Source of the DNA: an uncultured Muribaculaceae bacterium
GTDB taxonomy: Bacteria; Bacteroidota; Bacteroidia; Bacteroidales; Muribaculaceae
DNA: 64,000 nt
Direction: 5' to 3'
NCBI GenBank assembly: GCA_905233915.1
Contig: CAJOFM010000006.1
Span: 16,873 to 80,872, forward strand
In this document: positions 3,301-54,045 of the stretch, piece after piece
Position numbering within the stretch: the first letter of the stretch is position 1
Layout of the letters: every line of letters starts with the position of its first letter
Translations under genes and position numbers: made by a program
Notes under the pieces: generated by a model
Told to the model about the DNA's origin: nothing
What the model saw: the letters and a program-made list of their open reading frames with translations, nothing else
Database searches by the model: none

Positions 3301-5304
3301 CGTGCACAGGTAGTTGTGCTCACCATCGGACGAACCGCTGATGTACATCGTGGCATGGTTATAGGCGCTCAAGTCGGGCGTGGACACCACATTGCCTGTC
3401 GTGCCGTTATAGCCGCTGTAGCCCAGATAGCCCACCTGGGTGTTCAGGAAGCCTGCGGGATTGCCGCTGGTGTTGTCGGCATCCAAGCGGAAGAAGCAGG
3501 CATTGTCATCGACACGCACCCTGGACTTGTCTGCCTCAACCCACTCAACGATGGGAGTGCCCTGGAAGGTGGTCTCGCTGCGGTTCCAGTGCTTCATCAC
3601 CTTGTCGTGATACTGGCTCACGATGATGTAGGTGGCACCGTCCACAATCTGGCTGGTGCTGGTCACCAGGTCAAAGATGTCGCCAATCACGCGGTCGAAC
3701 GTCGCGCTCAGCGTCACGTCGTTGGCCGGCATGATGAAGGTGTAGGTGCCGTCGCCGTTGTCAATCAGGTTCAGGTCGCTGCCGTTGGTGTCGTTGGTGC
3801 CCGTCAAGCCCGTGAACACGTAGCCCTGGCTGGGCGACACGGTGAAGGTGACGGTCTTGCCCTCGTTGCTGATGTAGGTATTGTTCAGGTCAACAGCACC
3901 GCTCAGGAAGTCAAACTCGCCGCCATACTGGGGCGTGCTCACGGTGTGGATCTCATAGGGGTCGGTAAACGTGGCCACAATGTGGACATCGGCACCAGGC
4001 ATCACAAAGGTGTAGCTGTTGCCCAGCGCACTCTCGCTGGTGCAGGTCAGCGCCACGGGGTTGCCGATGCTGTCGGTCGCGGTGACCGAGCCGATGCCAT
4101 AACCCTCGCGGGTGCCGACAAAGAAGGTTACCGTCTCGAACTGTTGCGAGGTTTGGTGACCATCGATTTCAAGCACGCCATCGCCCAGGGTGATGAAGCC
4201 GCCGGCAGTGGGGTCGCACTCGGTCGTGATCTCGTAGTTGCGGGCCGGCATGTAAAGGTAAACACGCTGGTTGGCCGCCGAAGCATTTCTCGACGAGTAA
4301 TCAATCGTCCTGAAGTAACTATAACTATTGATATAGCTGATGGCACAAGTGTCGGTATTGGTCGACGTCGTGGCATCGCGCTTGAAACGGATGCGTGCAT
4401 CATAATTATCGGTAGCTCCAATTTCAATCCTCACTGGGCTGTAGGTTGCGTTTAATCCTTCATAGTACAATGAATAGCCATTGTTGGCGGAATTATAGGC
4501 ATTGTAGGGGCTGGTGCTGTTTGCATTACCTTTCTTGACAGAATTGCGACGCAAGTAGTTGTCGGAGCCCGTAATGCCCAATAGCCAGGGGCGATTGGAG
4601 TCGGACGATTCTTTCAGGGTGAAAATCTGCACCTCGGGATTGATAATCACTTTCATCTTGGTATCGTCAACAAACGAAATGCCGACCGCATCCATCGTGA
4701 CCTGAGTGCCACTGAAGCACGACTGGGTTGCAGTGCTCATCGCCATGTTGTAACGCTGGTTGACGATGACATACTTCTGGTCGGGCTGCAACTGCGAGTA
4801 GTCGGTCACCAGGTCATAGATGTCACCCGTCTCCTTCTCGAAGGTAATCTCTACCGAGCCAAAGCGTACGGGCTTGGCCATCGTGGTGAACTGGATCTTG
4901 TTGGTCTCGCCCACCCACGTGCCGGTGTAGCCGCTGTAGGTATAGGTGCCCGGCTCGGACTGATTGTAGAAGTTCTGCACAATCGAGATGGTCGAGGGGC
5001 CCCAATAGAAGCAGTCCAGGTTGTCGCTGGTCGTGTTGTCCACGCAGCGGAAGACAATCTTCTTGATGATGTAGCTCTGGTTGACCGAGCGCACCTCAAA
5101 GTACACCTGCTGGTGCTCCACCAGGTAGTTGGGATTGTTCATACCGCTGGTGAACGTCATCATCAAGCCGCCCTTGTAGCAGTAATAGACGCCGTTCGAC
5201 TCCTCGAACTGCCCCTCGTTGCGGTTGATGACGACCGTCTGCTCTCCAGCCCAGATGGGGATGGACAGCATCAATGTCATCAATAGTAAGAATAGTTTTT
5301 TCAT
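397..5304 (-). CDS. Large multi-module secreted protein (1635 aa): divergent InlB-B (Flg_new_2-like) repeats, SusE/F-like modules, T9SS-like CTD
   Basis: Signal peptide MKKLFLLLMTLMLSIPIWA; three GG..(T/F)...GETVTF...GY...YTF.MP..DV...ATF repeats; two D(I)(Y/F)DLVT...Y(V/I)IV modules; two LYLLG modules; CTD VESVSFFNVMGQESKTPFEGVNIVVTRYNDG...KVLM. Confidence 0.85.
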   Translation of the reverse strand: MKKLFLLLMTLMLSIPIWAGEQTVVINRNEGQFEESNGVYYCYKGGLMMTFTSGMNNPNYLVEHQQVYFEVRSVNQSYIIKKIVFRCVDNTTSDNLDCFYWGPSTISIVQNFYNQSEPGTYTYSGYTGTWVGETNKIQFTTMAKPVRFGSVEITFEKETGDIYDLVTDYSQLQPDQKYVIVNQRYNMAMSTATQSCFSGTQVTMDAVGISFVDDTKMKVIINPEVQIFTLKESSDSNRPWLLGITGSDNYLRRNSVKKGNANSTSPYNAYNSANNGYSLYYEGLNATYSPVRIEIGATDNYDARIRFKRDATTSTNTDTCAISYINSYSYFRTIDYSSRNASAANQRVYLYMPARNYEITTECDPTAGGFITLGDGVLEIDGHQTSQQFETVTFFVGTREGYGIGSVTATDSIGNPVALTCTSESALGNSYTFVMPGADVHIVATFTDPYEIHTVSTPQYGGEFDFLSGAVDLNNTYISNEGKTVTFTVSPSQGYVFTGLTGTNDTNGSDLNLIDNGDGTYTFIMPANDVTLSATFDRVIGDIFDLVTSTSQIVDGATYIIVSQYHDKVMKHWNRSETTFQGTPIVEWVEADKSRVRVDDNACFFRLDADNTSGNPAGFLNTQVGYLGYSGYNGTTGNVVSTPDLSAYNHATMYISGSSDGEHNYLCTFDSIGNANRTIRYEAASNSFRIINYGNNTDERVWLYKLADNYHNISTVCKPAEGGSITVDATSAQEGETVTFTTTTNQGFTFDHVTVTYTDGTEGEIPLTEENSTYTFTMPDGAVTITAYFAPEDLYLLGTALGKTWAPYGPKFTYDYNNEYYYIDVYFKGIRQGLNWTNGDDRYGYFSLTTKIADPSDQNGWATIGNYRIYPDNNGYDMDIVDGQTRPIAQNYSGKAFVIPAGIYRIIVNTGKTEVTVRQTPVSLTITSPEDGATVAAGTDVTWTSDVNEKVQAIADLYADVNEPAATNDYSINNGGKVIGDHATLTQGGNNTVTADAWIGYIEASDVATYNVVAPQSLYLLGFHNGSSTFQMYGTPLEYDINTNTYSIKVYYKGIRQGREYTDGDLQKGYFHFSTVQDNSSGNPWNYLIADWNDYPVTSYVDGESPVMHHLNAGSDHSAAFEIEPGIYTIYVSGDKTQMWVEKHPVELTLTPAGGPTNTQPVYVTYNTVVTATSDIEAEVQAINPNEDDATFYFDKKVAFNSSINYSTTVEGDTITVCAPMDILAKGHAYIGWIEVEKTGWFRYTPLHYLENYRAEHITRERTVCDTLVGVWAARSILWCKDIGNKSISPNYPQMIPGTESMQRDYNVEFDLQDGDWDQSNWVAVDLVDYLWLNYRLDPNEEGDYGAIDEVMSQFVNKQLEPLSIKGSYCFEDGMFKIYMDTAPRVLADTIGYPGFLRDPHEELNGVVYCYNYYTPSNFLFYSYDEGQTPGPQAIQADQDDPKNNFFFVNPKIGEIVHVWGVWKGNDEFVVYKHSSNTNRYDLNGKFRVAGWDYNRLDKNSDTDVVYGNPNETGESADALMVNYDYDFHIAIITVESEDPVNLNAPKREPSETAMGEYKDYSFGDGDEKFMVFPLDLLGHGSTYTDVNEVEAARVVESVSFFNVMGQESKTPFEGVNIVVTRYNDGTTQVNKVLM

Positions 5305-7495: not shown

Positions 7496-10400
7496 ATGCG
7501 ACATTTTAAACTATTCACCAGGGAGAAGTTCAAGCTATTGCTCTTGATCTTCTGCCTCGCTGTATCGGTACCGCAGCTGCGGGCCGATGTTGTGGTAGCG
7601 GGCAACAACACGACGCTATTTGGCGGCAGTTGGACCACTGCCACTAACTCATCCAACAAGATGACGCAGCACAGTGGCACAAACTACTACTATCTGACCA
7701 AGACCAATGCCAACCTGACTGGAAACTTAGAGTTCAAGGTCGTTGACAATGGCAACTGGTACGGCACCAGCAGTGGCGACAATGTGACCTGCAACGCTAC
7801 TGGCACCCACACCATCACTTTCCTCTATAACTCCAGCAACCATGAAGTTGACCGCATTGGCACCTTCAGCACGGATGTTATTGTGACGGGTAGTGATGCG
7901 CAAGCACTGGGTAGTTCATGGGCTAACTCTAATCTGAGCAATGCCATGTCGACAAGTGATGGCCTCACCTTCACGTTGACCCGTACCGCGCAATACACCA
8001 GCGCAACCTCCATGCAGTTCAAAGTCCATTCGGTCACTACCGACCGATGGTACGGCACCAGCAGTGGCGACAATGTGTACTACAGTATTCCTGGCGCCGG
8101 CACCTATGACGTCACCTACACCTTCAATGTCATTTCCAGGGAAGTGAGCGCCACCGTAACCCCCACATCGGTTACGCCTCCCACTCCCGATTATTACATC
8201 ATTGGTGACAACACCGACTTGTGGCCTAACGGCTGGAACACTTCCAACATTCCCGCCAGCCAACAGATGACCGAGAGCAATGGGGTTTACACCTGGAGTG
8301 TGAGCAATGTCCACCTGGACGCCGGTAGCATCGGTTTCAAGGTCTATGACAGCAATGGTGTTTACCATCCCAGTGGCTCAGGCACCAACATCAATATCAA
8401 TGTCAGCCAATCGGGCACCTATGATCTGGTCATCACCTATGACCCCAACAGTGCTGACGACCGGGCCACCGTTGTTCTCACACCCATCTCCCTTGACCCT
8501 GTCATCCCCCATTATTATGTCACGGGTGACAACGGGTTAGGCCTTGGCGGTTTCACCTGTGTGCCCACACTGGAACTGACCGATGCCGACGGCGACGGGA
8601 TTTTCACCTACACGACCACCGCAACAGCCGACGGAACATACAGCTTTGTGTTTGCCAACGGCAAGGGAGCCAATTCCAGCGACTGGAGCAACTTCAATGA
8701 CAATTATCGCATTGGTCCGACCAATGGCAACACACAAATTGCCATCAATGCCCCCTTCCAACAAACGCAATTGTCCGGTGGTGACCATGGCGCCTACCAG
8801 ATCACTGTAGCGGCAGGTCCTGTGACATTCTACATCAACCACAGCGACATGACCTTCAGGATCGAGGCCACCGAACTCACCATCCCCGTCAATTATTACG
8901 TGAAGGGCGACAATACCGACATCTTCCCCAACGGCTGGAACGACGGAGCAAGCACTGCCATGACCGACAATGGGGACGGCACCTACATCTGGACTTCGGG
9001 GCAGTTCCGCCTCGAGATGGGCACCAGCTATGCGTACAAGGTTTGGGGTGATGACAACTCTTGGCATCCCAATGGTGACAACGCCACCTTCAGTTCCAAT
9101 GTTCCCGGCACCTACACGGTAACCATCACCTACGACAACAACAATGAGACGGTAAATGCCGTGCTGAATCCCATCCAGACCGACCCGACCTACGACTACG
9201 ATATCTACGTGCGCTACACTGGCGAAGAGCCCGTCGAGAACGTCTTCATTTACGCATGGGACGCTGGTGGCGACTTGTCGGATGCGTGGAGCGGCAGCAC
9301 AGGCGGCACCTCGCTGTCGAGCCTCACCACTCAGGAGATCAACGGCTACACCTACTACAAGGTGAGCTATACCTCCTATGCAACAAGCATCGGCGTTATC
9401 TTCAACGAGAACGGTTCTGGCGACACAAAGACCGCCGACCTGACCGCCAACCCTGGCAACAGCTACTTCACCTATGGCGGCGGCAGCGATGTTGTCGGTC
9501 CGTCGTCCCAAGCCGACGTGCCTGACTACTTCGTTGTGGGCCAGGACACCAGCCTCTTCCCCAACGGCTGGAACACCGGCAGCGAGACGCTGATGACCGA
9601 TAACAACGGCACCTATACCTTGACCATGACCAACGTTCAGCTGAACGCCAATCAAAACTATGAGTACAAGGTGCGCGGCACTGACGGTTCCTGGTATCCC
9701 GACGGCGACAATGCCTCGTTCAGCGTGGACGCCAGGGGCACCTACAACGTGGTGTTTACCTTTGACGGCACTAATGTGAATGCAGTAGCAACGCTGGTAC
9801 AAGCCGATCCGACCTACGACTACGACATCTACGTGCGCTACACTGGCAACGAGAATGTGAGCAACGTGTTCGTGTATGCCTGGGACAACGAGGGAACACT
9901 CTCTGACGCCTGGGACGGCAGCACGGGCGGCACCGCACTGTCGAGCCTGACTTCACAGGAAATTAACGGTCACACCTACTACCATGTGACCTACACGAGC
10001 TATGACTCGTCCATCAGCCTTATCTTCAACGAGAACGGCTCGTCATCGACACAAACAGCCGACTTGACCGCAGAGCCTGGTGACAGCTACTTCACCTATG
10101 GCGGCGGCAGCACCGTCGACGGTCCCAATGCCGAGGCCGACGAAGCCATTACCTCGATGTATCTTATCGGCTACGCAGGCACACAGCAATGGGCTGCCAA
10201 CGCCGGTATCGAGATGGAATGGGATGAGGCGAACGGTTATTACAAGCTGACCAATGTCGTGTTGACCGCTGGCAGCCAGTTTGCCTTCGCAACTCAGCTG
10301 GGCAGCAACAATGATGACTGGGAGACGCTCAACAACCATCGTTTGAGCTCCAACGGAGCCAACAACTGGTTGATTACCGATGACATGTTCGACACTTGGC

Positions 10401-13174
10401 TAAATTATCGCGATTACACCGACGAAAACCACAACTGGTATGTCAATCATGCCGGATCCTATGACATCTTTGTCAACCCTGCCACCCGCATGGTGATGGT
10501 TTCGGCACCGCACGAGGAGATGTACATTTCCTATGGCGTCAACTGGACCTATCAGGACAACAGCATGCAGATGAGCACGGTAGACGGTAATATTTACCAG
10601 GCCACCATCACGCTCAACAACGGCGACTACTTCCTGTTCTCGACTAACCTGACCGATGAGACCGCATGGGGAGCCGAGACCAACGGCTACGAGATTACCG
10701 ACATGAGAATCGGCTATGCCCAGAAGATGGTTCAGGGCTCTGCCAACAACTACCACTTCACTGGCACCTCGGGCAAGTATATTGTTGTGGTCAACAAGGA
10801 GAAGAAGACCGTTACCCTGCGCAAGACCACCGATGCCACGGTGACCAAGGTCTATCTGCAGAAGAGCCCCAACGTGGTTCTTGACCCTGCCGGTGGCACC
10901 TATAACAACGTGCCGGTAGAAGGCAAGCGCGGCGGCATCTATGCCTGGAACAAGCTAAACCTGGAAGCCCAGAACGGCCAGACCTACACCTGGGCAATGG
11001 ATAAAGGTCCCACCAACTACACCTACGCTGGCGAGGTCGGTAACGACTATGGTGGCGACAACTATCTGAAGGACTTGAACGACACCATCACAGCCGATGG
11101 CAAGCAGTGGTATGCCTGGAGCATCCGCAACTCCATCTGCGAGTTCTACTTCATCCGCAACAACAAGGATGACCACAAGTCGCAGAATGTGATGCGCCGC
11201 GCCGGTGAGGTGTGGCTCGTCTGGACCGACGAGGATGCCACCAGCAACCGTCAGGACGACGCTGTGCAATGCGACAGCCTGCAGGAAGTGACACGCGACT
11301 ACTATGACGTGAGTGCCGGGTCGGTTGGCGACTGCGCCACCATGCTCGAGGGTCACTATTATGTGTATTACACCAACACCACCGGTTGGGATTCAGTTTA
11401 CTGCTACGCTTGGAGTGAGAATCCTCTGGTTGAATTCAATGGCACTTATCCCGGCAGCAAGTGTACCTTTGTCGGCTATGACGAGCACGGTTACGAGGTT
11501 TGGTGCTATGACTTCGGCCTGATTGACCAACACGGCGATAATGCGCCCGAACATGTCATCTTTGACAACGGCATGAACACCGACGAGACCCGTCAGCAGA
11601 CCGGCGACATGGTCTATGACAATGGCGCATGCTACGACTATCTGGGAATGATTTACCTGGGCAACTCGCTGAATGCCATCATCAACAGCGGCGTTGTCAA
11701 CGGTCCCAAATACACCGTCGAGGATGACCTGATTGGTGTTTACTACGACGAGAATGCCATCACGCTCATCAAGGCCTTTGACGAGAGTGGAACCGAGGTT
11801 GATTACTACGTCCGTGGTGCCCTCTATGCCAAGGACAACGAGAACTACAGCGCCAAGTCCAAGATGGCAGGCGGAAGCACCGACTACGTCTATGACATCT
11901 GTGCCCACCCCAAGACGACACAGTACCCCGGCGGCTCTCAAATCCAGCTCAAGCGCACTTACTACGATCAGAGTAACTGGGTAAAGATTGTGCTCTCGCC
12001 CAACTTTGACAACACCAATGCCAAGAGTAACGGTGATGTGACCATCGACGCCGACCAGTTTGACACGATGAACTATGAGCAGGCAACAGCTGTCGAGGGG
12101 GGTTACCTAAGCCGCTACGTCGGTAAGATCATCCCCGGCCACTCCATGTCGGGTAATCTAGTCAACAACGTCAATCCCCAGATGCACATCACCAACATCG
12201 CCAATCCCGTTGCGGCCAACCAGCAGTACGAGAAGAACGTGTATGTCACGACCCACTTCAACGACTCGGTAGTATTCAGCTACGCGCATCAGGACTGGAA
12301 GCCCGGCAACTATCAGGGTGTGTATCGGACCGTTCCCTATCTGGGCACCGACGACCAGGGCAACACCATCATCGACCACACCGAGGTGGACGAGTCTGTC
12401 CTCTACAAGATGTACTATGTGGCACCCAAGCCCCAGGAGGTAGCTTACATCACTTGGGCAGTGTTTGACCACCCCAATCCCAATAACAACATCGGCACTC
12501 CCAGCTGCGTGCAGGAGCCCGATGAACCCGGTGCCTTCTATGCACCCATGAATTGGGATAGGACCGGCCAGTTGTGGGATGGCACCAACCCCAATGATCC
12601 CAATGCTCCTTGGGGCACCACCTATGGCCCGTTCAGTAACGGTTACATGCAATACGGCGCATTCCAGGTCAACTGGTCACTCTTTGAGGACATGGAAATT
12701 CCCGTGAGCAACACTAACCGTGAGCAGCTCCCCTGGTATCAGGTCTTCAAGCCTGGTCAGGCCTATAAGATTCTTGCCATCATCCGCTACGCCCATGGTG
12801 ACAAGCCCGAGGATGTCGAGTACACGCCAGGCGTTTATTCGGGCAACGAATACAATGAGGGTGCAGGCAGCCACGTGGCTAACGCTCCGCGCCGCAGCAA
12901 CACCCGCTGGGCCGACATCAAGCCTGTGGAGTATGATGACCTGGATCAGAGCAAGTTCATCATCTTCCCCCTGAGGGGAAGCAGTGAGGACTCCAATGGC
13001 AACGACATTGGAAACGTGACCGTTGTCAAGGAGGTCAGCACCGCTCGCACCGTCGTCAGTGAGCGCTACTACAACCTGATGGGTGTCGAGAGCGACAAGC
13101 CGTTCAGCGGCATCAACATTGTCGTGACCACCTACAGCGACGGCAGCCGCACGAGCAAGAAAATCCTGCGCTAA
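7496..13174 (+). CDS. Very large secreted protein (1892 aa) with about 12 starch-binding-like modules (X25/SusE-F-like, CBM26-like) and T9SS-like CTD
   Basis: N-terminal hydrophobic signal; repeated Y(Y/F)(V/I).GD...(F/W)PNGW modules; YVYYTNTTGWDSVYCYAW and VFIYAWD...VIFNENG CBM26-like modules; CTD VVSERYYNLMGVESDKPFSGINIVVTTYSDG...KILR. Confidence 0.85.
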   Translation: MRHFKLFTREKFKLLLLIFCLAVSVPQLRADVVVAGNNTTLFGGSWTTATNSSNKMTQHSGTNYYYLTKTNANLTGNLEFKVVDNGNWYGTSSGDNVTCNATGTHTITFLYNSSNHEVDRIGTFSTDVIVTGSDAQALGSSWANSNLSNAMSTSDGLTFTLTRTAQYTSATSMQFKVHSVTTDRWYGTSSGDNVYYSIPGAGTYDVTYTFNVISREVSATVTPTSVTPPTPDYYIIGDNTDLWPNGWNTSNIPASQQMTESNGVYTWSVSNVHLDAGSIGFKVYDSNGVYHPSGSGTNININVSQSGTYDLVITYDPNSADDRATVVLTPISLDPVIPHYYVTGDNGLGLGGFTCVPTLELTDADGDGIFTYTTTATADGTYSFVFANGKGANSSDWSNFNDNYRIGPTNGNTQIAINAPFQQTQLSGGDHGAYQITVAAGPVTFYINHSDMTFRIEATELTIPVNYYVKGDNTDIFPNGWNDGASTAMTDNGDGTYIWTSGQFRLEMGTSYAYKVWGDDNSWHPNGDNATFSSNVPGTYTVTITYDNNNETVNAVLNPIQTDPTYDYDIYVRYTGEEPVENVFIYAWDAGGDLSDAWSGSTGGTSLSSLTTQEINGYTYYKVSYTSYATSIGVIFNENGSGDTKTADLTANPGNSYFTYGGGSDVVGPSSQADVPDYFVVGQDTSLFPNGWNTGSETLMTDNNGTYTLTMTNVQLNANQNYEYKVRGTDGSWYPDGDNASFSVDARGTYNVVFTFDGTNVNAVATLVQADPTYDYDIYVRYTGNENVSNVFVYAWDNEGTLSDAWDGSTGGTALSSLTSQEINGHTYYHVTYTSYDSSISLIFNENGSSSTQTADLTAEPGDSYFTYGGGSTVDGPNAEADEAITSMYLIGYAGTQQWAANAGIEMEWDEANGYYKLTNVVLTAGSQFAFATQLGSNNDDWETLNNHRLSSNGANNWLITDDMFDTWLNYRDYTDENHNWYVNHAGSYDIFVNPATRMVMVSAPHEEMYISYGVNWTYQDNSMQMSTVDGNIYQATITLNNGDYFLFSTNLTDETAWGAETNGYEITDMRIGYAQKMVQGSANNYHFTGTSGKYIVVVNKEKKTVTLRKTTDATVTKVYLQKSPNVVLDPAGGTYNNVPVEGKRGGIYAWNKLNLEAQNGQTYTWAMDKGPTNYTYAGEVGNDYGGDNYLKDLNDTITADGKQWYAWSIRNSICEFYFIRNNKDDHKSQNVMRRAGEVWLVWTDEDATSNRQDDAVQCDSLQEVTRDYYDVSAGSVGDCATMLEGHYYVYYTNTTGWDSVYCYAWSENPLVEFNGTYPGSKCTFVGYDEHGYEVWCYDFGLIDQHGDNAPEHVIFDNGMNTDETRQQTGDMVYDNGACYDYLGMIYLGNSLNAIINSGVVNGPKYTVEDDLIGVYYDENAITLIKAFDESGTEVDYYVRGALYAKDNENYSAKSKMAGGSTDYVYDICAHPKTTQYPGGSQIQLKRTYYDQSNWVKIVLSPNFDNTNAKSNGDVTIDADQFDTMNYEQATAVEGGYLSRYVGKIIPGHSMSGNLVNNVNPQMHITNIANPVAANQQYEKNVYVTTHFNDSVVFSYAHQDWKPGNYQGVYRTVPYLGTDDQGNTIIDHTEVDESVLYKMYYVAPKPQEVAYITWAVFDHPNPNNNIGTPSCVQEPDEPGAFYAPMNWDRTGQLWDGTNPNDPNAPWGTTYGPFSNGYMQYGAFQVNWSLFEDMEIPVSNTNREQLPWYQVFKPGQAYKILAIIRYAHGDKPEDVEYTPGVYSGNEYNEGAGSHVANAPRRSNTRWADIKPVEYDDLDQSKFIIFPLRGSSEDSNGNDIGNVTVVKEVSTARTVVSERYYNLMGVESDKPFSGINIVVTTYSDGSRTSKKILR
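8891..10150 (+). repeat. Intragenic tandem duplication of about 630 nt (X25-like + CBM26-like pair)
   Basis: DPTYDYDIYVRYTG at 9182 and 9806, with near-identical DNA through GGT.LSSLT.QEING.TYY and YFTYGGGS. Confidence 0.85.
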
Positions 13175-29382: not shown

Positions 29383-29462
29383 CGAGCACGCAGTCATCAT
29401 AGCATCATCTTTGCTTTTTTCACCGAGGTTCAGCGTTGATTCACCTCGGTATGTACCCTAAC

Positions 29463-29480
29463 AAGCCCTACGGGCTTTTT
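29463..29480 (+). terminator. Intrinsic terminator
   Basis: AAGCCC-tac-GGGCTT-TTT. Confidence 0.6.
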
Positions 29481-29560: not shown

Positions 29561-29591
29561 TTTGTCAGTTCAAAAAAAGTTCGTAATATTG
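29561..29591 (+). promoter_or_regulatory. Bacteroidetes sigma promoter
   Basis: TTTG-N19-TAATATTG (one mismatch to TAnnTTTG). Confidence 0.55.
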
Positions 29592-29774: not shown

Positions 29775-30761
29775 ATGAAGGTAAAAAATTTACTTCTTTT
29801 TGCAGCTGCCGCAGCCTTGAGCGCAACCGCAATGGCTCAGGATCTGAAGACCGGTGAGTATGCTGTTCAGAATGACGGTAGCCCCGCCATCATTGGTCAG
29901 TGCGTACAGGACCACCTCTTCGTACGTAACGATTATGACGATCAGGGTGAGACCAAGACCTATGACAACGTTATCAGCTTCAAGACTGGTACTCCTCAAG
30001 TCGTAGCTTTCTTCCTTGATGACCGTGAAATCTACAACAATGCCGAGGTTCAGGCTCTGACTCCTGTGCCCTGCACAGATGGTGGTAGCGAGCTCTATAA
30101 GGAGATCACTTACAACTCAGCTCAGTTCGACATCTATCTGCCCATGACCATGTCGCTGATTAAGTACAAATTCCCCGGTGAGAAGCGCGCTATTGAGGCT
30201 CAGGCTGGCGATCGTCTTCCCTATGACGCAAGCATTTCTTGGTCCAAGAAGGATAACACCAAGACCATCGACGGTATTGAGTACAATGTTTACACTGTTC
30301 TGATCACCAACCAGAAGAACGACGCTTGCCACTTCTCTGGCAACGAGGACACCTATGCTGACAATGAGGGTGCCCTGATGATGGACGACGCTCCCCTGTT
30401 CAAACTGGCAGTCGAGAACGCTAACCAGGCTGAGGTTGAGGGTCACCTCGCTGACATGATCATTGCTAACCAGGAGTTTGGTATCCGTGAGGCCAACATC
30501 AATTGGGGTACTGATCCCAACAAGTGCCGCTACATCTATGGTACTGGTGGTAACAACGTTGAGCAGCGCTTCCAGCTCTACAACCGCGTAAGCCTCTATG
30601 GCAGCAGCGCCGTTGTTGAGAACCTGGCCGAGAAGACCATCAAGAGCGTACGTTACTACAACATCGCCGGTATGGAGAGCGAAGTTCCCTTCGAGGGTGT
30701 TAACATCAAGGTGACCACCTACAACGATGGTACCAACAGCACCTGCAAGGTGATCAAGTAA
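29775..30761 (+). CDS. Secreted protein with a cohesin-like core and T9SS-like CTD
   Basis: Signal peptide ending ATAMA; AQFDIYLP...YTVLITN...FSGN...LFKLAV; CTD IKSVRYYNIAGMESEVPFEGVNIKVTTYNDG...KVIK; strongly biased codons. Confidence 0.8.
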   Translation: MKVKNLLLFAAAAALSATAMAQDLKTGEYAVQNDGSPAIIGQCVQDHLFVRNDYDDQGETKTYDNVISFKTGTPQVVAFFLDDREIYNNAEVQALTPVPCTDGGSELYKEITYNSAQFDIYLPMTMSLIKYKFPGEKRAIEAQAGDRLPYDASISWSKKDNTKTIDGIEYNVYTVLITNQKNDACHFSGNEDTYADNEGALMMDDAPLFKLAVENANQAEVEGHLADMIIANQEFGIREANINWGTDPNKCRYIYGTGGNNVEQRFQLYNRVSLYGSSAVVENLAEKTIKSVRYYNIAGMESEVPFEGVNIKVTTYNDGTNSTCKVIK

Positions 30762-30785: not shown

Positions 30786-30817
30786 AAAAAGCCACGGGCA
30801 AATGCCTGTGGCTTTTT
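30786..30817. terminator. Bidirectional terminator
   Basis: aaaaagccacgggc-aaat-gcctgtggcttttt. Confidence 0.85.
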
Positions 30818-30819
30818 CT

Positions 30820-32700
30820 TTATCGTGTGCCGGGTAACCAGACGTCGCAAGCGAGTGACTTGTCGGGAGCAACCTGGCGAGGAACGACCAAGCCGTCCTC
30901 CATCAGCAGCAGACCAATGGCACGCGTCATCAGGATGTCGTCGTGTTTGCCCTGGCGGGCTCCGTAGCGTCCGCCACCCAGGTCCTGATAGTCACGCATC
31001 TCGTTCACCGCATCTTGGTCGCGCTCCACATATTTCCCGTCCCTGACCGCACCCACCAGTGCGGCAATCGCTTTGCCCTTTGTCTTGACATTGGTGTGGA
31101 AACCCAGTTTGTGAGGTGCGCGTTGATAGACGTTGCCATACACGCTGTACACCTTCTGCAGGATGTAATCGCTCTCCCCGGCACGCGCGGCCTCGTTGGT
31201 GAGCGTGTTGCTCTCAACGACAAGCAAGGCATTGTTATAAAATAAGGCCAACTGCATCGCTTTCCATGCCAGCATGTCGTGGTCGATGTGGCCGCGCCAC
31301 TGGGCGACGATGGCTGCCGGACGGACACCGCACGGCAGACGCCACACGGCAATCACCGAGTAGTCGCTGACCACACTCTTGCCACCCACATCCACCACTG
31401 CCATGTAACGTGCCGTGACCGGCCCATCCCGTTCAGGTTGTTCCCACACCTTGAGCAAGCCGTTGCTCGCTGCCACCAGATGAACGTTGACCTTCGCCCG
31501 GCTGCCGCTCAGCCCGTCGGCCTGGATATCACCAACAAACGATGGCGCAGCCACGCTTTGCCGCTCCATGCGGTCGAGATGCTCAGGTGCAAACGGGTTG
31601 CTACTTGTTGCCGTGAAGGCCTCGGTTGCCGTCGTGGGATATTCGGCCATCATGAGTGTCTGAGTATGATATTCCTTGCGTTTTTGATGATACCAGTTAA
31701 TCTGCTCCAGGGTGCAGCCGTTTTCCCACAGTTCACGCTCATAATCGTCCATCGCATCCCATAGTGCCTGCACATCATCCACCGGTTGACGATAAATCTC
31801 GATCTCATGCCATGGCACAAACAATGGTTCCTTGTCACTGCGCCCCATCTGCGCCCTTAACCACTCGTCATGGAAATAATTACCCACACCGTTTGCCGTG
31901 GACTCGAGCACGATAACCGTGTCGGGCTTGAGGGCCACACTGCCACACACGCTGCGCACCACATCGTCGGGGTTATGCATCGTGCTCGTTTTCCAGAAGG
32001 CCACTTCACTCAGGTGGGCCATCGAGATATCATAGCCACGCGCCATGTCCTCGCTGCGCGAACTCCCTGTGAGCACCAAGCAGTCCCGAGTTTCAATCTG
32101 CTGCACATTGGGTTGCCCCTCCAGCTTGGTAAAGCGCGGCGGGGCCTCCTCGTCGAGTAATTCCCGAGGATAATGACGCAGCAACAGGTTATACATGCGC
32201 TTGATGCTCTTACTGGTAACGTGCAAGTGACCGCAGATGAGGCTGTTCCAGCCCGTGTGCCTCACTATCTGCATCCATGCCATGTAGAGCTGCACCAGCG
32301 TGGAGCCACCCCACTGGCGGGCTTTTAACAGGATAACGCGCACGGGGCGGCCCGCCACGCGCTGTCCTTCCATCAGGGCCAGCAGCCTGCGTTGCGGGCG
32401 ATTGGGCACAAAAGGGATATTGCGGCTCAGGACTTTGTCCTTGATGGTCGCGCACCTCACGCACCAGAACTCAAAATCCTCCTGGATGCGGGCCCGATCC
32501 CGTGCCACCTCATCCAGCGTCAAGTAATCGGGGTGGTGTTCCAGCTCTGCCCGCGGCACCAGGCTGCCATCTACCTCTACCCTGTCTCCCCAGCACCCCA
32601 CGCCGGTCATCGGGTCATAAGGATTTCCCTCGAGTCGCGCCGTGCGCCTGCGGTTCTCTTCCAGGATTTCCTCTATATTATTATATAATGTGTGTTTCAT
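30820..32700 (-). CDS. terL: Phage terminase large subunit (orphan)
   Basis: ILLKARQWGGST (Walker A region), AHLSEVAFW (Walker B), VLESTANG (coupling motif), RNase H-like VVDVGG..SDYS and HDDILM. Confidence 0.85.
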   Translation of the reverse strand: MKHTLYNNIEEILEENRRRTARLEGNPYDPMTGVGCWGDRVEVDGSLVPRAELEHHPDYLTLDEVARDRARIQEDFEFWCVRCATIKDKVLSRNIPFVPNRPQRRLLALMEGQRVAGRPVRVILLKARQWGGSTLVQLYMAWMQIVRHTGWNSLICGHLHVTSKSIKRMYNLLLRHYPRELLDEEAPPRFTKLEGQPNVQQIETRDCLVLTGSSRSEDMARGYDISMAHLSEVAFWKTSTMHNPDDVVRSVCGSVALKPDTVIVLESTANGVGNYFHDEWLRAQMGRSDKEPLFVPWHEIEIYRQPVDDVQALWDAMDDYERELWENGCTLEQINWYHQKRKEYHTQTLMMAEYPTTATEAFTATSSNPFAPEHLDRMERQSVAAPSFVGDIQADGLSGSRAKVNVHLVAASNGLLKVWEQPERDGPVTARYMAVVDVGGKSVVSDYSVIAVWRLPCGVRPAAIVAQWRGHIDHDMLAWKAMQLALFYNNALLVVESNTLTNEAARAGESDYILQKVYSVYGNVYQRAPHKLGFHTNVKTKGKAIAALVGAVRDGKYVERDQDAVNEMRDYQDLGGGRYGARQGKHDDILMTRAIGLLLMEDGLVVPRQVAPDKSLACDVWLPGTR

Positions 32701-32702
32701 TT

Positions 32703-34721
32703 CTAAGTCCGTTTTGGTTTCTCCAGCGAGTACAGCAAGGTGGGGAGAAGCAGGCTACCCGTTTGGGCCTCGCCAGTCACGGCAAGGCGCAAGGTGCGTG
32801 ACTGCACCGCCATCGTGGGCGACGCCAGAGGCTGCTCTACACGGCCCTCAACGGTTGTCACACTCACGTCACTGTCTTGTGCCATGATGCCACGCTGTCC
32901 CGTGACACGCAGCGTGAGCGAGACCTCCTCCCCCGACACATGCCACACGACCCGATGCACCGCCTGTCCCATCAACGGATGCAAGGCAACGGGGTGCGAA
33001 CGCCACTCAACGGGCATTAGCCCCGCTTGCTCCTGTTCCAGGTCAAGCACGTCACCTGTAGGCGCCACTGCCACGGCATGGCGCGGGTCACTATAGAGCT
33101 GCGCCACGTCCACCGTGCGGCGGCTCATTGTGCCGCTCGCCATCATCACCATAGGGTCGCCCTCGGGCGGCAGGAGCCACAACTCGTCATGGGCATTGCA
33201 CCATGCCAGCGCACGATAAGCCACATCTCGCTGGCACACGGTGAGCCTCGAGCCGCTCAACCGGCACAAGTGGCCGTGACGCGACACCAGCCACACGTCA
33301 TGTCCCGCCTCGACAGGATGAACCGTGGCAGCAATAATGGTGCGGTCCACCAGGCGGGCTTCGCCCATGTGTCCCGTTGCCCCCTGAGGTATGGCATAGA
33401 TGCCGTCGTCGCTGAAGACATACACCGAATAACGCCCAAAACCGCCCGAGTACAACGGGCTGGTGACTACCGCCATGGCAATAGGCACCGTTCCCAGCAC
33501 AGCCCGTCGGTGCGCCTCAATCAAGGCATTGCCTGGAGCACTCACCACCACCTCGCCGCGGGAGTTACAGCAGTACAACCTGCCCGCCGCAACCGTCGAG
33601 CACACCACATCAGTCACACGGAACGGTGTGGCAATGGTGGCACACTGACTCGCCGTCAGCGTCAACGCTTCGACTGGAGCCGTGAAATCCTGGCTACCCG
33701 TACGAGCCGACGCTGGGGCCGTAGCAATGAGTCGCCAAGACGATGCCTCCAATTGATGCCCGATTGCCGTTGACGAGCGTCTGGTCAACCCCATCTCGAG
33801 GACATATTCACGACCGCCAGCCGTGCGCATCAGGCAACGGTAATCGAGTGCACGGCTCGACGACACCAGCTGAGCCTCGTCGGTAGCCAGCACGTCGATG
33901 CCCGCCACCAGCGGTTGCCACGCCTCGGGGATGGCACGCACCAGCGAGATGCCTAACAAATAACGTTTCAACGTCATCGCAGTGGCCTGGGTCCCCGTGA
34001 AACCACTGTTGTTGCTGTTCACCACAGCGCTGACGCGGTCGGCATTGGTCAACGTCTCGTCACCCACACGCACGGGGTCGCTCATCCACAGGTAGGAGCC
34101 GTCAATCAGTCGCACGGCCCACCGCACCAGCACGGGTGCCGTGCGAAAGCCCTCGGCACGGGCATCGGCGTTCAGCGTGTTCCATGCCGAGCGGATCAGA
34201 GTGGAATACACATTGATGTCAGCATCGGCCAGCGGCGCCTGCCAATGGCTGTAAGGGCTCTCAAATGTCACTGCGGGGATGTCGGCACTGGTTGTGTTCA
34301 CGTTTGCCGTAAAAGCCAACGTGGGTATGGCATCGGCTGGATCCATTCTTTGCCAGCCATCATCGGCGAGCAGTAGGTAGGTCAATCCTGTAGTGGCGAC
34401 GATGACGACAAAAGGCCCCACGACATGGGCGCCCACAATAGTGCCGTCAATCGTCACGCCATGGGCACCATCCAGCTTCACCATCGAGCCGTGGCAGGTG
34501 ATCATGTGACCTGCCGCCAACGTCAACAGGCGGTCGTCCTCGGGCACCTGCCCCACCCTGACGGGCAGTCCTGTCACTTGCAGGGATTGTTCCCGTTCCC
34601 TGATGTTCACTGCCGCAACGGCCTGGCCAGGCCGGGCCGCCTCACCGTTGGCGAGCGCCACAGCACCCCGAGGCACGATGCGGATCTCTCTCATGTTTCT
34701 TTTTCTTCTCGTGTTTTTCAT
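32703..34721 (-). CDS. Hypothetical protein resembling Bacteroidetes phage virion-stabilisation/tail-tubular proteins (start 34721 or 34694)
   Basis: Stop is 2 nt from the terL start; beta-rich; the N-terminal G....A.N.R...L pattern recalls P22 gp10/T7 tubular-B-like proteins (by eye only). Confidence 0.55.
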   Translation of the reverse strand: MKNTRRKRNMREIRIVPRGAVALANGEAARPGQAVAAVNIREREQSLQVTGLPVRVGQVPEDDRLLTLAAGHMITCHGSMVKLDGAHGVTIDGTIVGAHVVGPFVVIVATTGLTYLLLADDGWQRMDPADAIPTLAFTANVNTTSADIPAVTFESPYSHWQAPLADADINVYSTLIRSAWNTLNADARAEGFRTAPVLVRWAVRLIDGSYLWMSDPVRVGDETLTNADRVSAVVNSNNSGFTGTQATAMTLKRYLLGISLVRAIPEAWQPLVAGIDVLATDEAQLVSSSRALDYRCLMRTAGGREYVLEMGLTRRSSTAIGHQLEASSWRLIATAPASARTGSQDFTAPVEALTLTASQCATIATPFRVTDVVCSTVAAGRLYCCNSRGEVVVSAPGNALIEAHRRAVLGTVPIAMAVVTSPLYSGGFGRYSVYVFSDDGIYAIPQGATGHMGEARLVDRTIIAATVHPVEAGHDVWLVSRHGHLCRLSGSRLTVCQRDVAYRALAWCNAHDELWLLPPEGDPMVMMASGTMSRRTVDVAQLYSDPRHAVAVAPTGDVLDLEQEQAGLMPVEWRSHPVALHPLMGQAVHRVVWHVSGEEVSLTLRVTGQRGIMAQDSDVSVTTVEGRVEQPLASPTMAVQSRTLRLAVTGEAQTGSLLLPTLLYSLEKPKRT

Positions 34722-34776
34722 GTCATTTGGTTTTATTGTATAAAAAAGTGAGCACGCGCTCATTTGTATTGTCCTG

Positions 34777-34784
34777 CAAAAATA
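34777..34784 (-). promoter_or_regulatory. -7 promoter element for the phage-like pair
   Basis: TATTTTTG on the minus strand, CTTG 21 nt upstream, located after the upstream gene's terminator. Confidence 0.55.
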
Positions 34785-34810
34785 CGTTATCATCCATCAC
34801 TCCCGCAAGT

Positions 34811-34876: not shown

Positions 34877-36055
34877 TTAGTTACTCAGCACAATAGAGAT
34901 CAATGCTGTAACGTCAGCCACATTAATTGCACCTTCAGCATCTCCGTTTACGTTTGCCTCTTCAACAAAGAATGGTTCAGGCTCATTACCCAGCACATAC
35001 TGGATCAAGGCAGTCACATCGGCCACGTTCACAAAACCATCGTGGTTAACGTCGCCCAACTCGAAGCTAACGCTTGAAGGTACTACAAACGTTGAGCCAT
35101 CGGTATAATACAGGCGGTTATCGGTCCAGCCCGACCAAGTGCGGGCACGGTTCCAGGGCATCGTAGCTCCCCAAGTGATTTCCTCCTGATTGACAGCACC
35201 AGTGTTGCCACCAGCAATGTCACCGCCGTTATCGGTAGCGTTATACCACACACCCATACCGCCGGCTGCAGCCTCGTCGGGAATGTCACGCAGCATCTGC
35301 AGGGGATAGGTCATCGTGCCGTCGCTGTTCAAGATCATGGCAATCTCGGGGGCACCATAACCATAGATGTTGGTCACATACACGGTGTCGCCACTCTGAC
35401 GGATGCACACATCCACCATGCGGGCCTCACCAGTGGCCACATCGGTAAACTCATGCTTGCCATTGGGCACCAGAAGCTTCAGGTCGCGGAAGATGCGTGA
35501 CACATCGGCGGTCTCGTCGGTAAAGGTGCGGCTCTCGCCGTTACGGCCAGTGATGGTCGTGGTCTTCACCGTCTCGATATAGTAGGCAAAACCGCCAGGG
35601 ATATGGATGTTGTCGTTGGCGTCGACCACACCCTGAACATCGGCCAATTCTCCGCCAGTAATCCACTCCTCATTCACCACATAGAAGTTCTGCACGCTGT
35701 CCACCCTGGTGATGACACCGTCATTCTCGATGGTGGTTGTGCCCATTACTGAAGCAAACGGATTGTCGCTCGTGGCGTCGAGCGTCACTGTGCCCGTGCG
35801 GTAGTCGATCTGCAACGGCTGGGACACCTGATAGAGCGTGAGTCCATTGCGGGCTACCAATACGTCACCCTCGGCCGACGGCTGCATGATTACCGTCCAG
35901 CCACCATAATAATAGGGGTCAGCCTCGCTGATAGTCACAGCGCCCGTCGTGGACTCGTTCCAGTTATACAGATGAAACATGCTGATGCGGTTCTGGGCCA
36001 TTGCCGTCAAGCACACAAGCACGCTCAAGATTGCGACAATATTTCTCTTACACAT
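34877..36055 (-). CDS. Secreted protein with C-terminal type-I dockerin
   Basis: Signal peptide ending LTAMA; GDVNHDGFVNVADVTALI and ANVNGDAEGAINVADVTALI. Confidence 0.85.
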   Translation of the reverse strand: MCKRNIVAILSVLVCLTAMAQNRISMFHLYNWNESTTGAVTISEADPYYYGGWTVIMQPSAEGDVLVARNGLTLYQVSQPLQIDYRTGTVTLDATSDNPFASVMGTTTIENDGVITRVDSVQNFYVVNEEWITGGELADVQGVVDANDNIHIPGGFAYYIETVKTTTITGRNGESRTFTDETADVSRIFRDLKLLVPNGKHEFTDVATGEARMVDVCIRQSGDTVYVTNIYGYGAPEIAMILNSDGTMTYPLQMLRDIPDEAAAGGMGVWYNATDNGGDIAGGNTGAVNQEEITWGATMPWNRARTWSGWTDNRLYYTDGSTFVVPSSVSFELGDVNHDGFVNVADVTALIQYVLGNEPEPFFVEEANVNGDAEGAINVADVTALISIVLSN

Positions 36056-36350: not shown

Positions 36351-38075
36351 TTATTGGTTGAGAACCAACTGGATCAGAGCGGTAACGTCAGCAACGTTGA
36401 GGACGCCAGCGGCATCGCCGTCACAGTTAGCCTGCTCTACATAGAATACCTCGGGCTCCTCGCCAGAAGTCAAGACGAACTGGATCAGAGCGGTAACGTC
36501 AGCAACGTTCACGTTTTTATCGTGGTTAACGTCACCAAGCTTCCAAGTCTCAACAGGCTCGGGCAAAGTCAGAGGAGCGTTGAAGGTCAGCTTGTTGTTC
36601 AGCCAGCTTGCCAAGTAGCCATAAGCCAGGTGCAGGTAATCATCCTCCTCGGTGGTGTACATATTATAGATATCGGTAGCTGCCCAGGTGATCTCGGTCT
36701 TGTCGGCGTTCAGCTCGCAAGGAGTGTCATCCCAGCTCCAGCCGGTCATATAGTAACCGTTAAGGCCTCCCTCGTTGTAGAGGGCATAGGTAGGAGCGAA
36801 GTTAACGAAGGCATCGGTCATGGTAATACCGTCCTGATTATAGGCGCTCATGTCCTCGTGGTAAACGGGCTGCCAGGGGAAGTTAACCAGACCATCGGCA
36901 TCGAGTGAGAACTCTACACCAGGATAGTTAGACAGACCAAACAGGTTCCAAGCAAAGATGGTGTCACAAGCCTGGTTCTGATACATGAAGACGGGAACTT
37001 GTACTTCAGGAATAATGGAGTCCTTAAGAACTACATTGTATGTGCTATCGTCAACAGTAACGCTTACAGTGTGAGGATCAACATTGGGCTCATAGGCCTG
37101 ATCGAAGGTGTGAGTAGCATTAGGCAACATAAACATGTTGTCGGTGTACACGGCGTTTCTATATGAAGTCGAGTCGCTGACAGTCATGGTGTAGGTCCAA
37201 CCATACTGGGCAAACAAATCCTGGTATGTGTTCAAATAGAATGCCATTTGACGAACATTTGATGAGGAAGACGAAGTACCAACACCTAATGCGTTAGCAA
37301 TAGCATTATAGTTGGTCCTGGAAATACTGATCGTCTTGGTCACTTGAGCCTCGATGGGGCCGAAGGGCTTGTCAAGCTCGATCATGCCATAGTCCCAATT
37401 TACAACACCATGAGAAACATTGCCAGCGAGTTCGCCATTCTCATCACCGATACCGGTGTACCAGTAGCGAGCGTTAATGGTATAGGTGGTGTTACCATTC
37501 CTTGTTGCAGCCAGAGGATAGGTGTACATCCAGCCACCAAAGATGCCGATGCTGTCGGTTGCAGGCTCATACCATGCATAGCAATCGGGGAAGTCAGTGT
37601 AATGACCCGGATCGTACTGCGTGCCAGAACCATCAGGGTCAGTCATGAAGGGCATAGCACCCAGGTAAACCTCGCAATAACCACGATCCTCAAAGATGGT
37701 GTCGATCTTGAAATTCAAACCAGCGATGCCATACCAAGTGGGAGTTGTCTCGCCATTGGTAATAACATTCTCGATGCTGCTGTAGATCCAGTTGCCCTCG
37801 ATGTCGGTGTAGGTGCTGGCGCGACGGGGAGCGCGGTTCATCAGCGTGTTCTGGCTCAAGTCATGAGTCTTTACAAACTCATTGAGGGTTTTAGCCTCGC
37901 TAGCCTTAACCATCTTGTTGGTCAGGTCCTTGGCCAGCGTGTTGGTCTTGAACAACTGAGCTCCTCTTTCGAGCTGACGCTGCTGCATCTTAGATGTGTT
38001 TACGTGATGCACGGGATTGATAGCCATGGCGGTCAGTCCAGCGCACACAAACAAAAGTGCAAATAATTTCTTCAT
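36351..38075 (-). CDS. Secreted protein with C-terminal type-I dockerin (574 aa)
   Basis: Signal MKKLFALLFVCAGLTAMA; GDVNHDKNVNVADVTALI and ANCDGDAAGVLNVADVTALI; strongly biased codons. Confidence 0.87.
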   Translation of the reverse strand: MKKLFALLFVCAGLTAMAINPVHHVNTSKMQQRQLERGAQLFKTNTLAKDLTNKMVKASEAKTLNEFVKTHDLSQNTLMNRAPRRASTYTDIEGNWIYSSIENVITNGETTPTWYGIAGLNFKIDTIFEDRGYCEVYLGAMPFMTDPDGSGTQYDPGHYTDFPDCYAWYEPATDSIGIFGGWMYTYPLAATRNGNTTYTINARYWYTGIGDENGELAGNVSHGVVNWDYGMIELDKPFGPIEAQVTKTISISRTNYNAIANALGVGTSSSSSNVRQMAFYLNTYQDLFAQYGWTYTMTVSDSTSYRNAVYTDNMFMLPNATHTFDQAYEPNVDPHTVSVTVDDSTYNVVLKDSIIPEVQVPVFMYQNQACDTIFAWNLFGLSNYPGVEFSLDADGLVNFPWQPVYHEDMSAYNQDGITMTDAFVNFAPTYALYNEGGLNGYYMTGWSWDDTPCELNADKTEITWAATDIYNMYTTEEDDYLHLAYGYLASWLNNKLTFNAPLTLPEPVETWKLGDVNHDKNVNVADVTALIQFVLTSGEEPEVFYVEQANCDGDAAGVLNVADVTALIQLVLNQ

Positions 38076-39921: not shown

Positions 39922-39999
39922 GGGCAGTTAGCGCAGTTGGTTCAGAGCATCTGCCTTACAAGCAGAGGGTCGGGGGTTCGAATCCCTCACTGCCCACCA
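39922..39999 (+). tRNA. trnV: tRNA-Val (anticodon TAC), CCA encoded
   Basis: GGGCAGT/ACTGCCC acceptor stem, anticodon arm TCTGC-CTTACAA-GCAGA, T-loop GGTTCGAATCC. Confidence 0.96.
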
Positions 40000-52812: not shown

Positions 52813-54045
52813 TTACTTGATGACCTTAACGGCGCTGGTGGAGCCATCGCTATAGGTGGTCACTTGGATGGTCAGGCCACTGGGATGAGTCATCTCCTGT
52901 CCGGCGACGTTGAAATAGCGCACGCTGGACACGCTCTTGCCGGCGTTGACTTCGTCTACTGCCGAGGGCTTGGGATAAACATCCAGATAAACGATATTGG
53001 ACTTGTTAGAGATGCCGTCAACGGTGTAGTTCAACTGGATGCCGATGCGCCAGGTGAACATGGGATTCTCACCGTCATTGGTGCGATAGAAGTAAACGCG
53101 GCGCAGGTAGAAGTCCTCACCACTGAAGCCGTAGGGAATCTCAGTCATGTCGGTATCGAAGCCGTTGAGCGCGCCATAGGTTTCGGCATCAAATGTGAAC
53201 AGCTCATCATCGTCGGTAAAGATGCTGTAAGTCAGGTAATCGCTGTTCAACGGGTTGCCGTCAACGTCAACCAGGTTGATGTTGAAATCAAGTCGCGTGT
53301 AACCACTCTCATCGCCACAGTCAAAGAACTCAATCACCTCGGGATCGGCGGGAACGGCGGGTACAGCCTCGCCCATCCTGGTCCAGGTAGAACCCCACTC
53401 GATGGTGGCGATCGAACCGTCATCGCTCCAGATACCTGCAAGGCCAGTAGCGACACAGTCATAGGGGTAAGGATTGTTCATGTCACCCTCACTGCCCTGC
53501 AGCGTGATGGTGCCGTTCTCGGGATCGATGGCGTAAATCGCCTCGGTCTCGCGCTCATCGGCATAGAATTCAAACCAGTAAAAATCGTCACCCAAGTCAA
53601 TAACGTCGGTTGAGCCCCAAGCCAAAACAACGCCATAGCCATATAGCTCATTATAGGCAACATACTGGCCGAGAGGAACAGAAATCGACAGTCCGTCGGG
53701 ACTCAATTCGCCAACGACCCACGTGCCGGTACCCTCGGCATAGCACAGGATGTCCTGGATGTAAACGGTAGTGCCGTCATCGGCATAGACCACCTTGACG
53801 CGACCCGTTTGAGCGGCAGGCTCGTAGCCGTAGAAGCTTGAAAGCACATACTCGCCGCTGCGCAAGTAGTTCACCACGGTGCCCTCGGGCTGCTCGGTGA
53901 TGATGTCAACACGCGACGGGGCATTAATGGCTGTTCCGGGAGCAGCCTTGCCCATCGGACGATAGGCATTACCTGCCGACTTGATACCAGCCGACGCACT
54001 CACGGCAATCGCCGCACTCAACAAAAGTAAGGTTAATTTCTTCAT
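52813..54045 (-). CDS. Secreted protein with T9SS-like CTD (410 aa)
   Basis: Signal MKKLTLLLLSAAIAVSASA; IITEQPEG domain; CTD VSSVRYFNVAGQEMTHPSGLTIQVTTYSDG...KVIK. Confidence 0.82.
   Translation of the reverse strand: MKKLTLLLLSAAIAVSASAGIKSAGNAYRPMGKAAPGTAINAPSRVDIITEQPEGTVVNYLRSGEYVLSSFYGYEPAAQTGRVKVVYADDGTTVYIQDILCYAEGTGTWVVGELSPDGLSISVPLGQYVAYNELYGYGVVLAWGSTDVIDLGDDFYWFEFYADERETEAIYAIDPENGTITLQGSEGDMNNPYPYDCVATGLAGIWSDDGSIATIEWGSTWTRMGEAVPAVPADPEVIEFFDCGDESGYTRLDFNINLVDVDGNPLNSDYLTYSIFTDDDELFTFDAETYGALNGFDTDMTEIPYGFSGEDFYLRRVYFYRTNDGENPMFTWRIGIQLNYTVDGISNKSNIVYLDVYPKPSAVDEVNAGKSVSSVRYFNVAGQEMTHPSGLTIQVTTYSDGSTSAVKVIK

Follow-up and report, generated by a model that had tools for sequence, protein, structure and literature searches.

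Cohesin-dockerin assemblies are textbook Gram-positive machinery, and the cohesin fold is a nine-stranded beta jelly roll. In the Bacteroidota, the dockerins on record are all orphan modules reported by metagenome surveys (for example PMC6487960). A literature search found no description of the partners of these dockerins or of such a docking system. The gene considered here lies in a stretch of 64,000 nucleotides, called the window, which is C6:16873-80872 of G000, a 2.8-Mb Muribaculaceae genome; coordinates are those of the window unless a contig is named. The gene occupies positions 29775-30761 of the forward strand, and its product carries a single module, called CORE below. There is good confidence that this protein is secreted, probably surface-displayed and probably abundant, and that its module represents a new, unannotated family of one genus which is integrated in a cohesin-dockerin system. 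CORE is also probably homologous to cohesins. It appears from sequence profiles to be a new and enlarged module that is distantly related to the lineage's own cohesins, although the similarity is remote.

The open reading frame (ORF) encodes 328 residues, arranged as a signal peptide, the CORE module, a linker and a short C-terminal tail. The first-pass annotation had described a small secreted protein at this place, and the ORF is real; the motifs quoted for it (AQFDIYLP, ISWS, YTVLITN, FSGN, LFKLAV and IIANQEF) are all present. The N-terminus is MKVKNLLLFAAAAALSATAMA|QD, and the signal peptide, as read from the sequence, covers residues 1-22 (29775-29840, forward strand) with a predicted cleavage at AMA|QD. 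It is conserved in an alignment of 44 homologues, in which the N-terminus MK(I/V)KNLLL sets the start codon. CORE follows as a beta-sandwich of approximately 255 residues (residues 23-278; 29841-30608, forward strand), for which the AlphaFold2 (AF2) domain model is confident. A short linker of low model confidence leads to the 48-residue tail (30615-30758, forward strand), which has three predicted strands and resembles the end of a type A C-terminal domain (CTD) of the type IX secretion system (T9SS).

A database search returned 246 homologues of the target, each about 325 residues long and none of them named. Where a label is given, it is that of a Muribaculaceae or Bacteroidales metagenome-assembled genome. 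Mean column identity in the 44-homologue alignment is 65%, and many tyrosine, arginine, aspartate, histidine, asparagine and glutamine residues are invariant. Codon adaptation was used as a proxy for expression. Measured with ribosomal proteins as the reference, the target has a codon adaptation index of 0.73-0.75, which places it at the 94th percentile of 2143 ORFs, so the strong codon bias noted at first pass is real. It is a trait of the whole class of tail-bearing proteins and not of the target alone.

The yardstick for CORE is provided by cohesins of the same genome. Genome-wide, the Pfam Cohesin model gives one sub-threshold match (17.2 bits), on a 741-residue protein at C9:14747-16975 (reverse strand). 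A domain scan resolves this protein into LRR_5, Big_2, cohesin (Coh), dockerin (Doc), a second cohesin-like module and a C-terminal sorting-like domain. Its modules, used as queries, find four more proteins. Two of them share the target's short C-terminal tail, namely LRR-Big_2-Coh-Doc-Coh-tail at C15:20969-24544 (reverse) and LRR-Doc-Coh-tail at C17:28087-30249 (forward), where LRR stands for leucine-rich repeats. The others are a signal peptide-Coh-Doc protein of 213 residues (C15:20204-20842, reverse) and a cohesin-module protein of 174 residues (C4:112193-112714, reverse). G000 thus has 5 proteins that together carry about 8 modules recognisable as cohesins, three of these modules being on tail-anchored proteins. 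Where cohesins and a dockerin occur on the same protein, copies of it could link up into chains on the cell surface.

A profile of 15 such modules matches solved cohesins, including 5n5p (2.5e-4), CipA of C. acetobutylicum (6kgc) and NagJ of C. perfringens. It also matches the archaeal cohesin 2xdh as well as 5m2o, 5aoz and 5m2s, and a profile of fewer modules behaves similarly. These matches indicate that the modules of the lineage are genuine, if divergent, cohesins.

The relationship of CORE to these modules can be followed by aligning profiles. In hhalign, the 44-homologue alignment matches the lineage's cohesins with 87.7-88.6% probability (E ~3e-6) over 53-54 columns. With more diverse alignments, of 48 cores including fused variants against 14 cohesin modules, the probability is 94.8% (E 5.4e-8) over 80 collinear columns. 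In this longer alignment, residues 108-216 of the target (30096-30422, forward strand) pair with cohesin positions 28-107, which represent strands 3 to 8. None of 200 column shuffles scored above 21, whereas the real profiles score 54; a reversed profile scored 16.

The most conserved stretch of CORE (30096-30143, forward strand), marked by invariant columns in the homologue alignment, lies at the start of this segment. Its motif, Y108-x-E-x-T-Y-x-S-x-Q-x-D-x-Y-L-P123, matches the strand-3 motif 'a-x-Q-x-D-L-x-L-P-E-G' of the lineage's cohesins. In the type I cohesin of C. thermocellum, strand 3 has N37-C-D39, whose two polar residues both contact the dockerin, and the Q-x-D of CORE falls in the same place. 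A cohesin hidden Markov model (HMM), run with filters off, finds 30 of 51 CORE representatives at 8.5-22.7 bits and at the same position every time. The best of 10,193 background ORFs reaches 8.1 bits, which is under all 30 of these.

CORE is also tied to cohesins and dockerins by the proteins in which it occurs. Four arrangements were found. The first, exemplified by the target, is CORE followed by the short tail. In the second, a C-terminal dockerin replaces the tail, giving many proteins of 308-346 residues. In the third, CORE is the N-terminal tip of (Big_2)n-Coh-Doc-Coh-tail proteins. In the fourth, it stands at the C-terminus of LRR-Doc-(FGE-sulfatase)-CORE proteins. Pfam Dockerin_1 is present in 6 of the 7 large CORE relatives that were scanned. 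Several of these architectures have a cohesin counterpart. For instance, CORE-tail corresponds to Coh-tail, CORE-Doc to the Coh-Doc protein of 213 residues, and LRR-Doc-CORE to LRR-Doc-Coh-tail. Because CORE is fused to dockerins and to Coh-Doc-Coh scaffolds, the family is a built-in, mobile part of the genus's cohesin-dockerin system.

Individual loci illustrate these fusions. An example of the fourth arrangement is L005 524-5212 (G167:C38), which like P0155 and P0159 encodes a large protein with BspA-type LRR, dockerin, FGE-sulfatase (SUMF1-like) and CORE, without a C-terminal tail. Here an enzyme-like domain and docking modules share one protein, which is an unusual combination. At L010 974-5525 (G265:C36), two tandem genes encode LRR-Big2-Coh-Doc-Coh-CTD and CORE-Ig-Coh-Doc-Coh-CTD. 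In P0138, from another genome, genes of this tandem type are fused into one of 1292 residues, and CORE replaces the second cohesin of the first protein.

The family is narrowly distributed. Searches of the family used the core alone, as a whole-protein alignment returned mostly tail-only matches. CORE was found in 46 of the 133 species genomes of the window's genus, and was absent from the other 87. Searches of 144 genomes, spread over 34 other genera of the Muribaculaceae, did not find it. Among 1.84 billion protein cluster representatives, only 66 relatives of CORE were present.

Co-occurrence was examined in 13 genomes of the genus, with first-look dockerin candidates counted against canonical cohesin modules. 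CORE is present in G000 (210 candidates, about 8 cohesin modules), G229 (247 and 15), G223 (301 and 12), G167 (323 and 14) and G266 (233 and 3). It is absent from G169 (236 and 10), G098 (215 and 12), G121 (146 and 11), G074 (92 and 2), G154 (73 and 4), G046 (63 and 2), G016 (9 and 0) and G142 (6 and 0). Canonical cohesin and dockerin counts are correlated across the 13 genomes (Spearman rho 0.86, not corrected for phylogeny). All five CORE-positive genomes are dockerin-rich, with 210-323 candidates, and none is dockerin-poor. CORE is therefore not widespread in genomes that lack dockerins, a pattern that would have told against the link with dockerins drawn at first pass. This co-occurrence leaves room for an accessory role of CORE.

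The second sorting element of the target is its tail. The last ~48 residues match the C-termini of three other genes in the window (tblastn, E 1e-12 to 4e-12). These encode a protein of 1635 residues (397-5304, reverse strand; tail at 397-540), an X25/CBM26 protein of 1892 residues (7496-13174, forward strand; tail at 13028-13171) and a protein of 410 residues (52813-54045, reverse strand; tail at 52816-52965). Genome-wide, 29 six-frame ORFs end in this type of tail, always at the extreme C-terminus, and all those listed start with signal-peptide-like N-termini. Of the T9SS-like CTD that the first-pass annotation had ascribed to four genes of the window, the sharing holds, whereas a match to the known CTD family does not. 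PF18962, TIGR04183 and NCBIfam give no match to the whole target or to isolated tails at E up to 10. Likewise, hhalign against the genome's PF18962-positive CTDs finds a faint similarity, with a probability of 13.8% over 17 columns. Hence, the tail was not confirmed as a plain PF18962 domain.

The genome encodes SprA/Sov (PF14349) in an ORF of 2498 residues (E 1.4e-188); other T9SS components were not searched. The best inference is that the tail directs the protein through the T9SS to the cell surface, where tail cleavage and covalent attachment may follow, because its strand pattern is type-A-like, because it is strictly C-terminal on about 29 signal-peptide proteins, and because SprA is present. 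The tails form a class of their own (48 residues, three strands, about 29 proteins) that escapes both PF18962 and TIGR04183. A different combination is seen at C1:559063-561435 (reverse strand) of G000, where a protein of 791 residues has a canonical Por_Secre_tail-like CTD immediately after its dockerin, and so carries two tags.

The preferred reading, which is held tentatively and falls a little short of an even chance, is that CORE is a divergent cohesin that acts as an accessory, single-module docking site on the cell surface. It would resemble ScaE and ScaG of Ruminococcus flavefaciens, and it is predicted to bind dockerins. In this model, the target is Sec-exported and probably abundant. 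Next, the tail would most likely steer it through the T9SS to the cell surface. Its sole functional part would be the 255-residue beta-sandwich, a putative divergent and enlarged cohesin relative, which may retain there a subset of the ~140 secreted proteins that bear a dockerin. The docking face would be the face of the sheet with the conserved strand-3 motif Q117-x-D119. The CORE-tail protein would act alongside the canonical Coh-Doc-Coh scaffolds and not in their place. High codon adaptation fits such a high-copy anchor.

A stronger version of this model is unlikely. It holds that CORE is a new class of cohesin, enlarged and beyond the reach of current models, that the CORE-tail protein is the main high-copy dock on the outer membrane for a subset of dockerins, and that CORE-Doc proteins are adaptors that switch specificity. 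If true, this would give the Gram-negative Muribaculaceae of this clade a cellulosome-like display system that has two tiers and is T9SS-anchored.

Several results weigh against a cohesin-type docking site. Pfam Cohesin PF00963, with a gathering threshold of 24.1 bits, has no match to the target at E up to 10. CORE in general matches no Pfam family at that limit and has no meaningful NCBIfam match. At E up to 10 it also has no sequence match in the PDB, either as a single sequence or as a family profile. The target itself reaches 6.3 bits against the lineage-specific cohesin HMM, and it was not recruited by an iterative HMM search within G000 that started from the genome's cohesins.

Structures were compared with the help of two models. 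The full-length AF2 model, made from the 44-sequence alignment, has a pLDDT (predicted local distance difference test) of 85, which falls below 50 in the signal peptide (residues 1-22), and a pTM (predicted template modelling score) of 0.76. A domain-only model of residues 23-280 reaches 92 and 0.90. With both models, Foldseek found nothing in the PDB with E <1e-3 or a template modelling (TM) score >0.44. The best probabilities are those of cohesins, namely CohG of R. flavefaciens (4n2o, 0.95-0.98), 4wkz, and the type II modules 3fnk and 4wi0. Their superpositions stay under the level customary for a shared fold, with TM scores of 0.31 (query) and 0.40-0.44 (target), a root-mean-square deviation of 6-7 A and an E-value of 0.03. 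Integrin calf domains (0.97) and Gram-positive pilins (0.92-0.94) nearly equal them. Removal of the signal peptide and tail in the domain-only model did not sharpen the cohesin match. Alpha-haemolysin and IL-12, which have the lowest Foldseek E-values, were dismissed at TM ~0.2. CORE is thus modelled as an elaborated beta-sandwich, to which no solved structure comes close. Of the cohesin-like core proposed at first pass, what stands is the hhalign match (88-95%) and the place of cohesins as the top Foldseek class; Pfam Cohesin does not recognise it, the TM score is at most 0.44, and E is above 1e-3.

The alternative that survives best is that CORE is a cargo or adhesin head, a ligand-binding beta-sandwich for targets such as glycans, host molecules or other cells, and that any cohesin ancestry is historical only. 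This is plausible, though on balance doubtful. Such a head would be displayed through the tail in the target and through the dockerin in CORE-Doc proteins, and on Big_2 / Coh-Doc-Coh-tail stalks it would form the tip. The exchange of tail and dockerin at the C-terminus is the behaviour of a cargo domain. A further point against docking is the position of CORE at the N-terminal tip of Big_2 stalks (L006, L008 and L010), since this slot is held by a BspA-type LRR head in paralogues such as the C9 and C15 proteins of G000. Approximately 100 extra residues of CORE outside the cohesin-like part, where many of the invariant polar and aromatic residues lie, hold the strongly conserved motifs GQ..DH.F.R and YGTGGNN..QR.Q.Y.R, which suggest another or an additional binding site. 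The weak cohesin fold match, with pilin and integrin calf domains scoring alike, also favours a head of this kind. Moreover, the dockerins are already accounted for by canonical cohesins. Six of the genomes above have both without CORE (two dockerin-rich, four moderate).

Against a cargo or adhesin head, CORE matches no known carbohydrate-binding module, lectin or adhesin family. Its sole significant sequence relationship is to cohesins, and this is centred on the very strand that touches the dockerin in solved complexes. CORE-Doc and LRR-Doc-CORE proteins are equally readable as adaptor scaffoldins. On the whole, the architectures suit a docking site and a cargo or adhesin head equally well.

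Another alternative is that CORE is an unrelated, lineage-specific beta-sandwich, for instance a surface-coat or vesicle protein, with a short motif that converged on that of cohesins. This is improbable. It draws on a stricter shuffle of the hhalign profiles, which also counts against docking. When 8-column blocks were shuffled 200 times, the median score was 32 and the maximum 50, against 54 for the real profiles. Since block shuffles keep most of the score, the bulk of the signal comes from one short motif, and the rest from collinear extension. In addition, TM is <0.5 against everything in the PDB, and high codon adaptation is a property of other short-tail proteins too. However, the motif match is specific, with 30 of 51 members above every background ORF, and the alignment remains collinear over its 80 columns. 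Repeated fusion to dockerins and cohesins would be superfluous for a simple coat protein.

Finally, the first-pass annotation had proposed the target as the principal, otherwise missing cohesin partner of Bacteroidales dockerins, which its surface-sorting-type tail, high codon adaptation and cohesin resemblance would suit, but this is very improbable, because the same genome has recognisable cohesins on five other proteins, cohesin numbers track dockerin numbers with or without CORE, six dockerin-bearing genomes lack CORE, and so do 87 of the 133 species of the genus and all 144 genomes from other genera. Unlike what would be expected of an anchoring scaffoldin, CORE is not co-distributed with the dockerin repertoire.

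The surroundings of the gene add little to these arguments. Three proteins of the window end in dockerins, as stated at first pass, and all lack the target's type of tail. They are the C-terminal end of a protein whose ORF runs off the window, leaving its 3' part (3-284, forward strand; dockerin at C6:16974-17144, 27.5 bits), a protein of 392 residues (34877-36055, reverse strand; Dockerin_1, Pfam E 3.9e-8) and one of 574 residues (36351-38075, reverse strand; Dockerin_1, Pfam E 1.9e-5). G000 has 142 Dockerin_1 matches on proteins of very varied size. As this is about 1 per 20 kb, chance would account for the dockerin genes near the target, and their presence is uninformative. The gene neighbourhood is conserved in other species, yet it is likewise uninformative.

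The target gene looks monocistronic. A promoter-like site lies about 185 nucleotides 5' of the start codon (29562-29590, forward strand), where a consensus scan gives weak evidence for it. Downstream, a sequence scan finds a hairpin terminator with 14 pairs and a T-run between the convergent genes (30786-30817). On the other side, terminator-like hairpins at 29463-29477 and 29424-29450 end the upstream GT2-DUF6452-DUF6048 operon, and a leader and promoter region of about 300 nucleotides separates them from the target gene. The sole Rfam match in the window is a tRNA gene at 39922-39996 (forward strand).

Two genes beyond the terminator, at 30820-32700 and 32703-34793 (both reverse strand), encode proteins of 626 and 696 residues without a Pfam match. 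The same pair adjoins the target's orthologue (65% identity) in L002 and L003. Because its position beside the orthologue is kept in other species, the pair counts as a conserved feature of the chromosome rather than a recent prophage remnant.

The combination of ~140 dockerins, cohesins on tail-bearing proteins and CORE makes a Gram-negative, T9SS-linked docking system directly testable. CORE is a defined unit of 255 residues that is predicted to fold well and is unannotated, and it could be studied at low cost on binding arrays and by crystallography. Binding to dockerins would widen the definition of cohesins in sequence and structure. Failing that, CORE would be a new adhesin head displayed by means of the docking system.

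Among known systems, the BspA-type LRR proteins of the Bacteroidota (LRR_5) share with CORE the position of N-terminal head on Big_2 / Coh-Doc-Coh-tail proteins. Their fold is a solenoid, in contrast to the beta-sandwich predicted for CORE, and the two are not similar in sequence.

For the tail, the comparison is with T9SS cargo that has a type A CTD (PF18962 / TIGR04183), such as RgpB of Porphyromonas gingivalis. In both cases, the tag stands at the extreme C-terminus of signal-peptide proteins. The target's tail, with V-x-Y-x-N-x-x-G, G-x-N-I-x-V and K-V-I-K in this order, is reminiscent of the final strands of a type A CTD. It has ~48 residues and three predicted strands, compared with ~70-100 residues and seven strands in type A.

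The canonical cohesins of the lineage, on the C9, C15 and C17 proteins, have the strand-3 motif, the short tail and fusion partners in common with CORE. They are recognisable modules of 120-145 residues, in contrast to the 255 residues of CORE. They were found in every dockerin-bearing genome checked, whereas CORE occurs in about a third of the genus. The CORE gene has the higher codon adaptation of the two.

The closest functional parallel is found in Ruminococcus flavefaciens, in the sortase-anchored ScaE and in ScaG/CohG (4n2o, 4wkz). Like the target, these proteins combine one cohesin-type module with a surface signal and have no enzyme. They belong to a Gram-positive bacterium and are anchored by sortase or to the wall, where the target has a T9SS-type tail. 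CORE is about 100 residues larger, has extra conserved motifs and superposes on CohG at TM ~0.4, and dockerin binding by the target is a prediction. By analogy, the role proposed for the target is likewise that of ScaE and ScaG, an anchor or shuttle for dockerin proteins.

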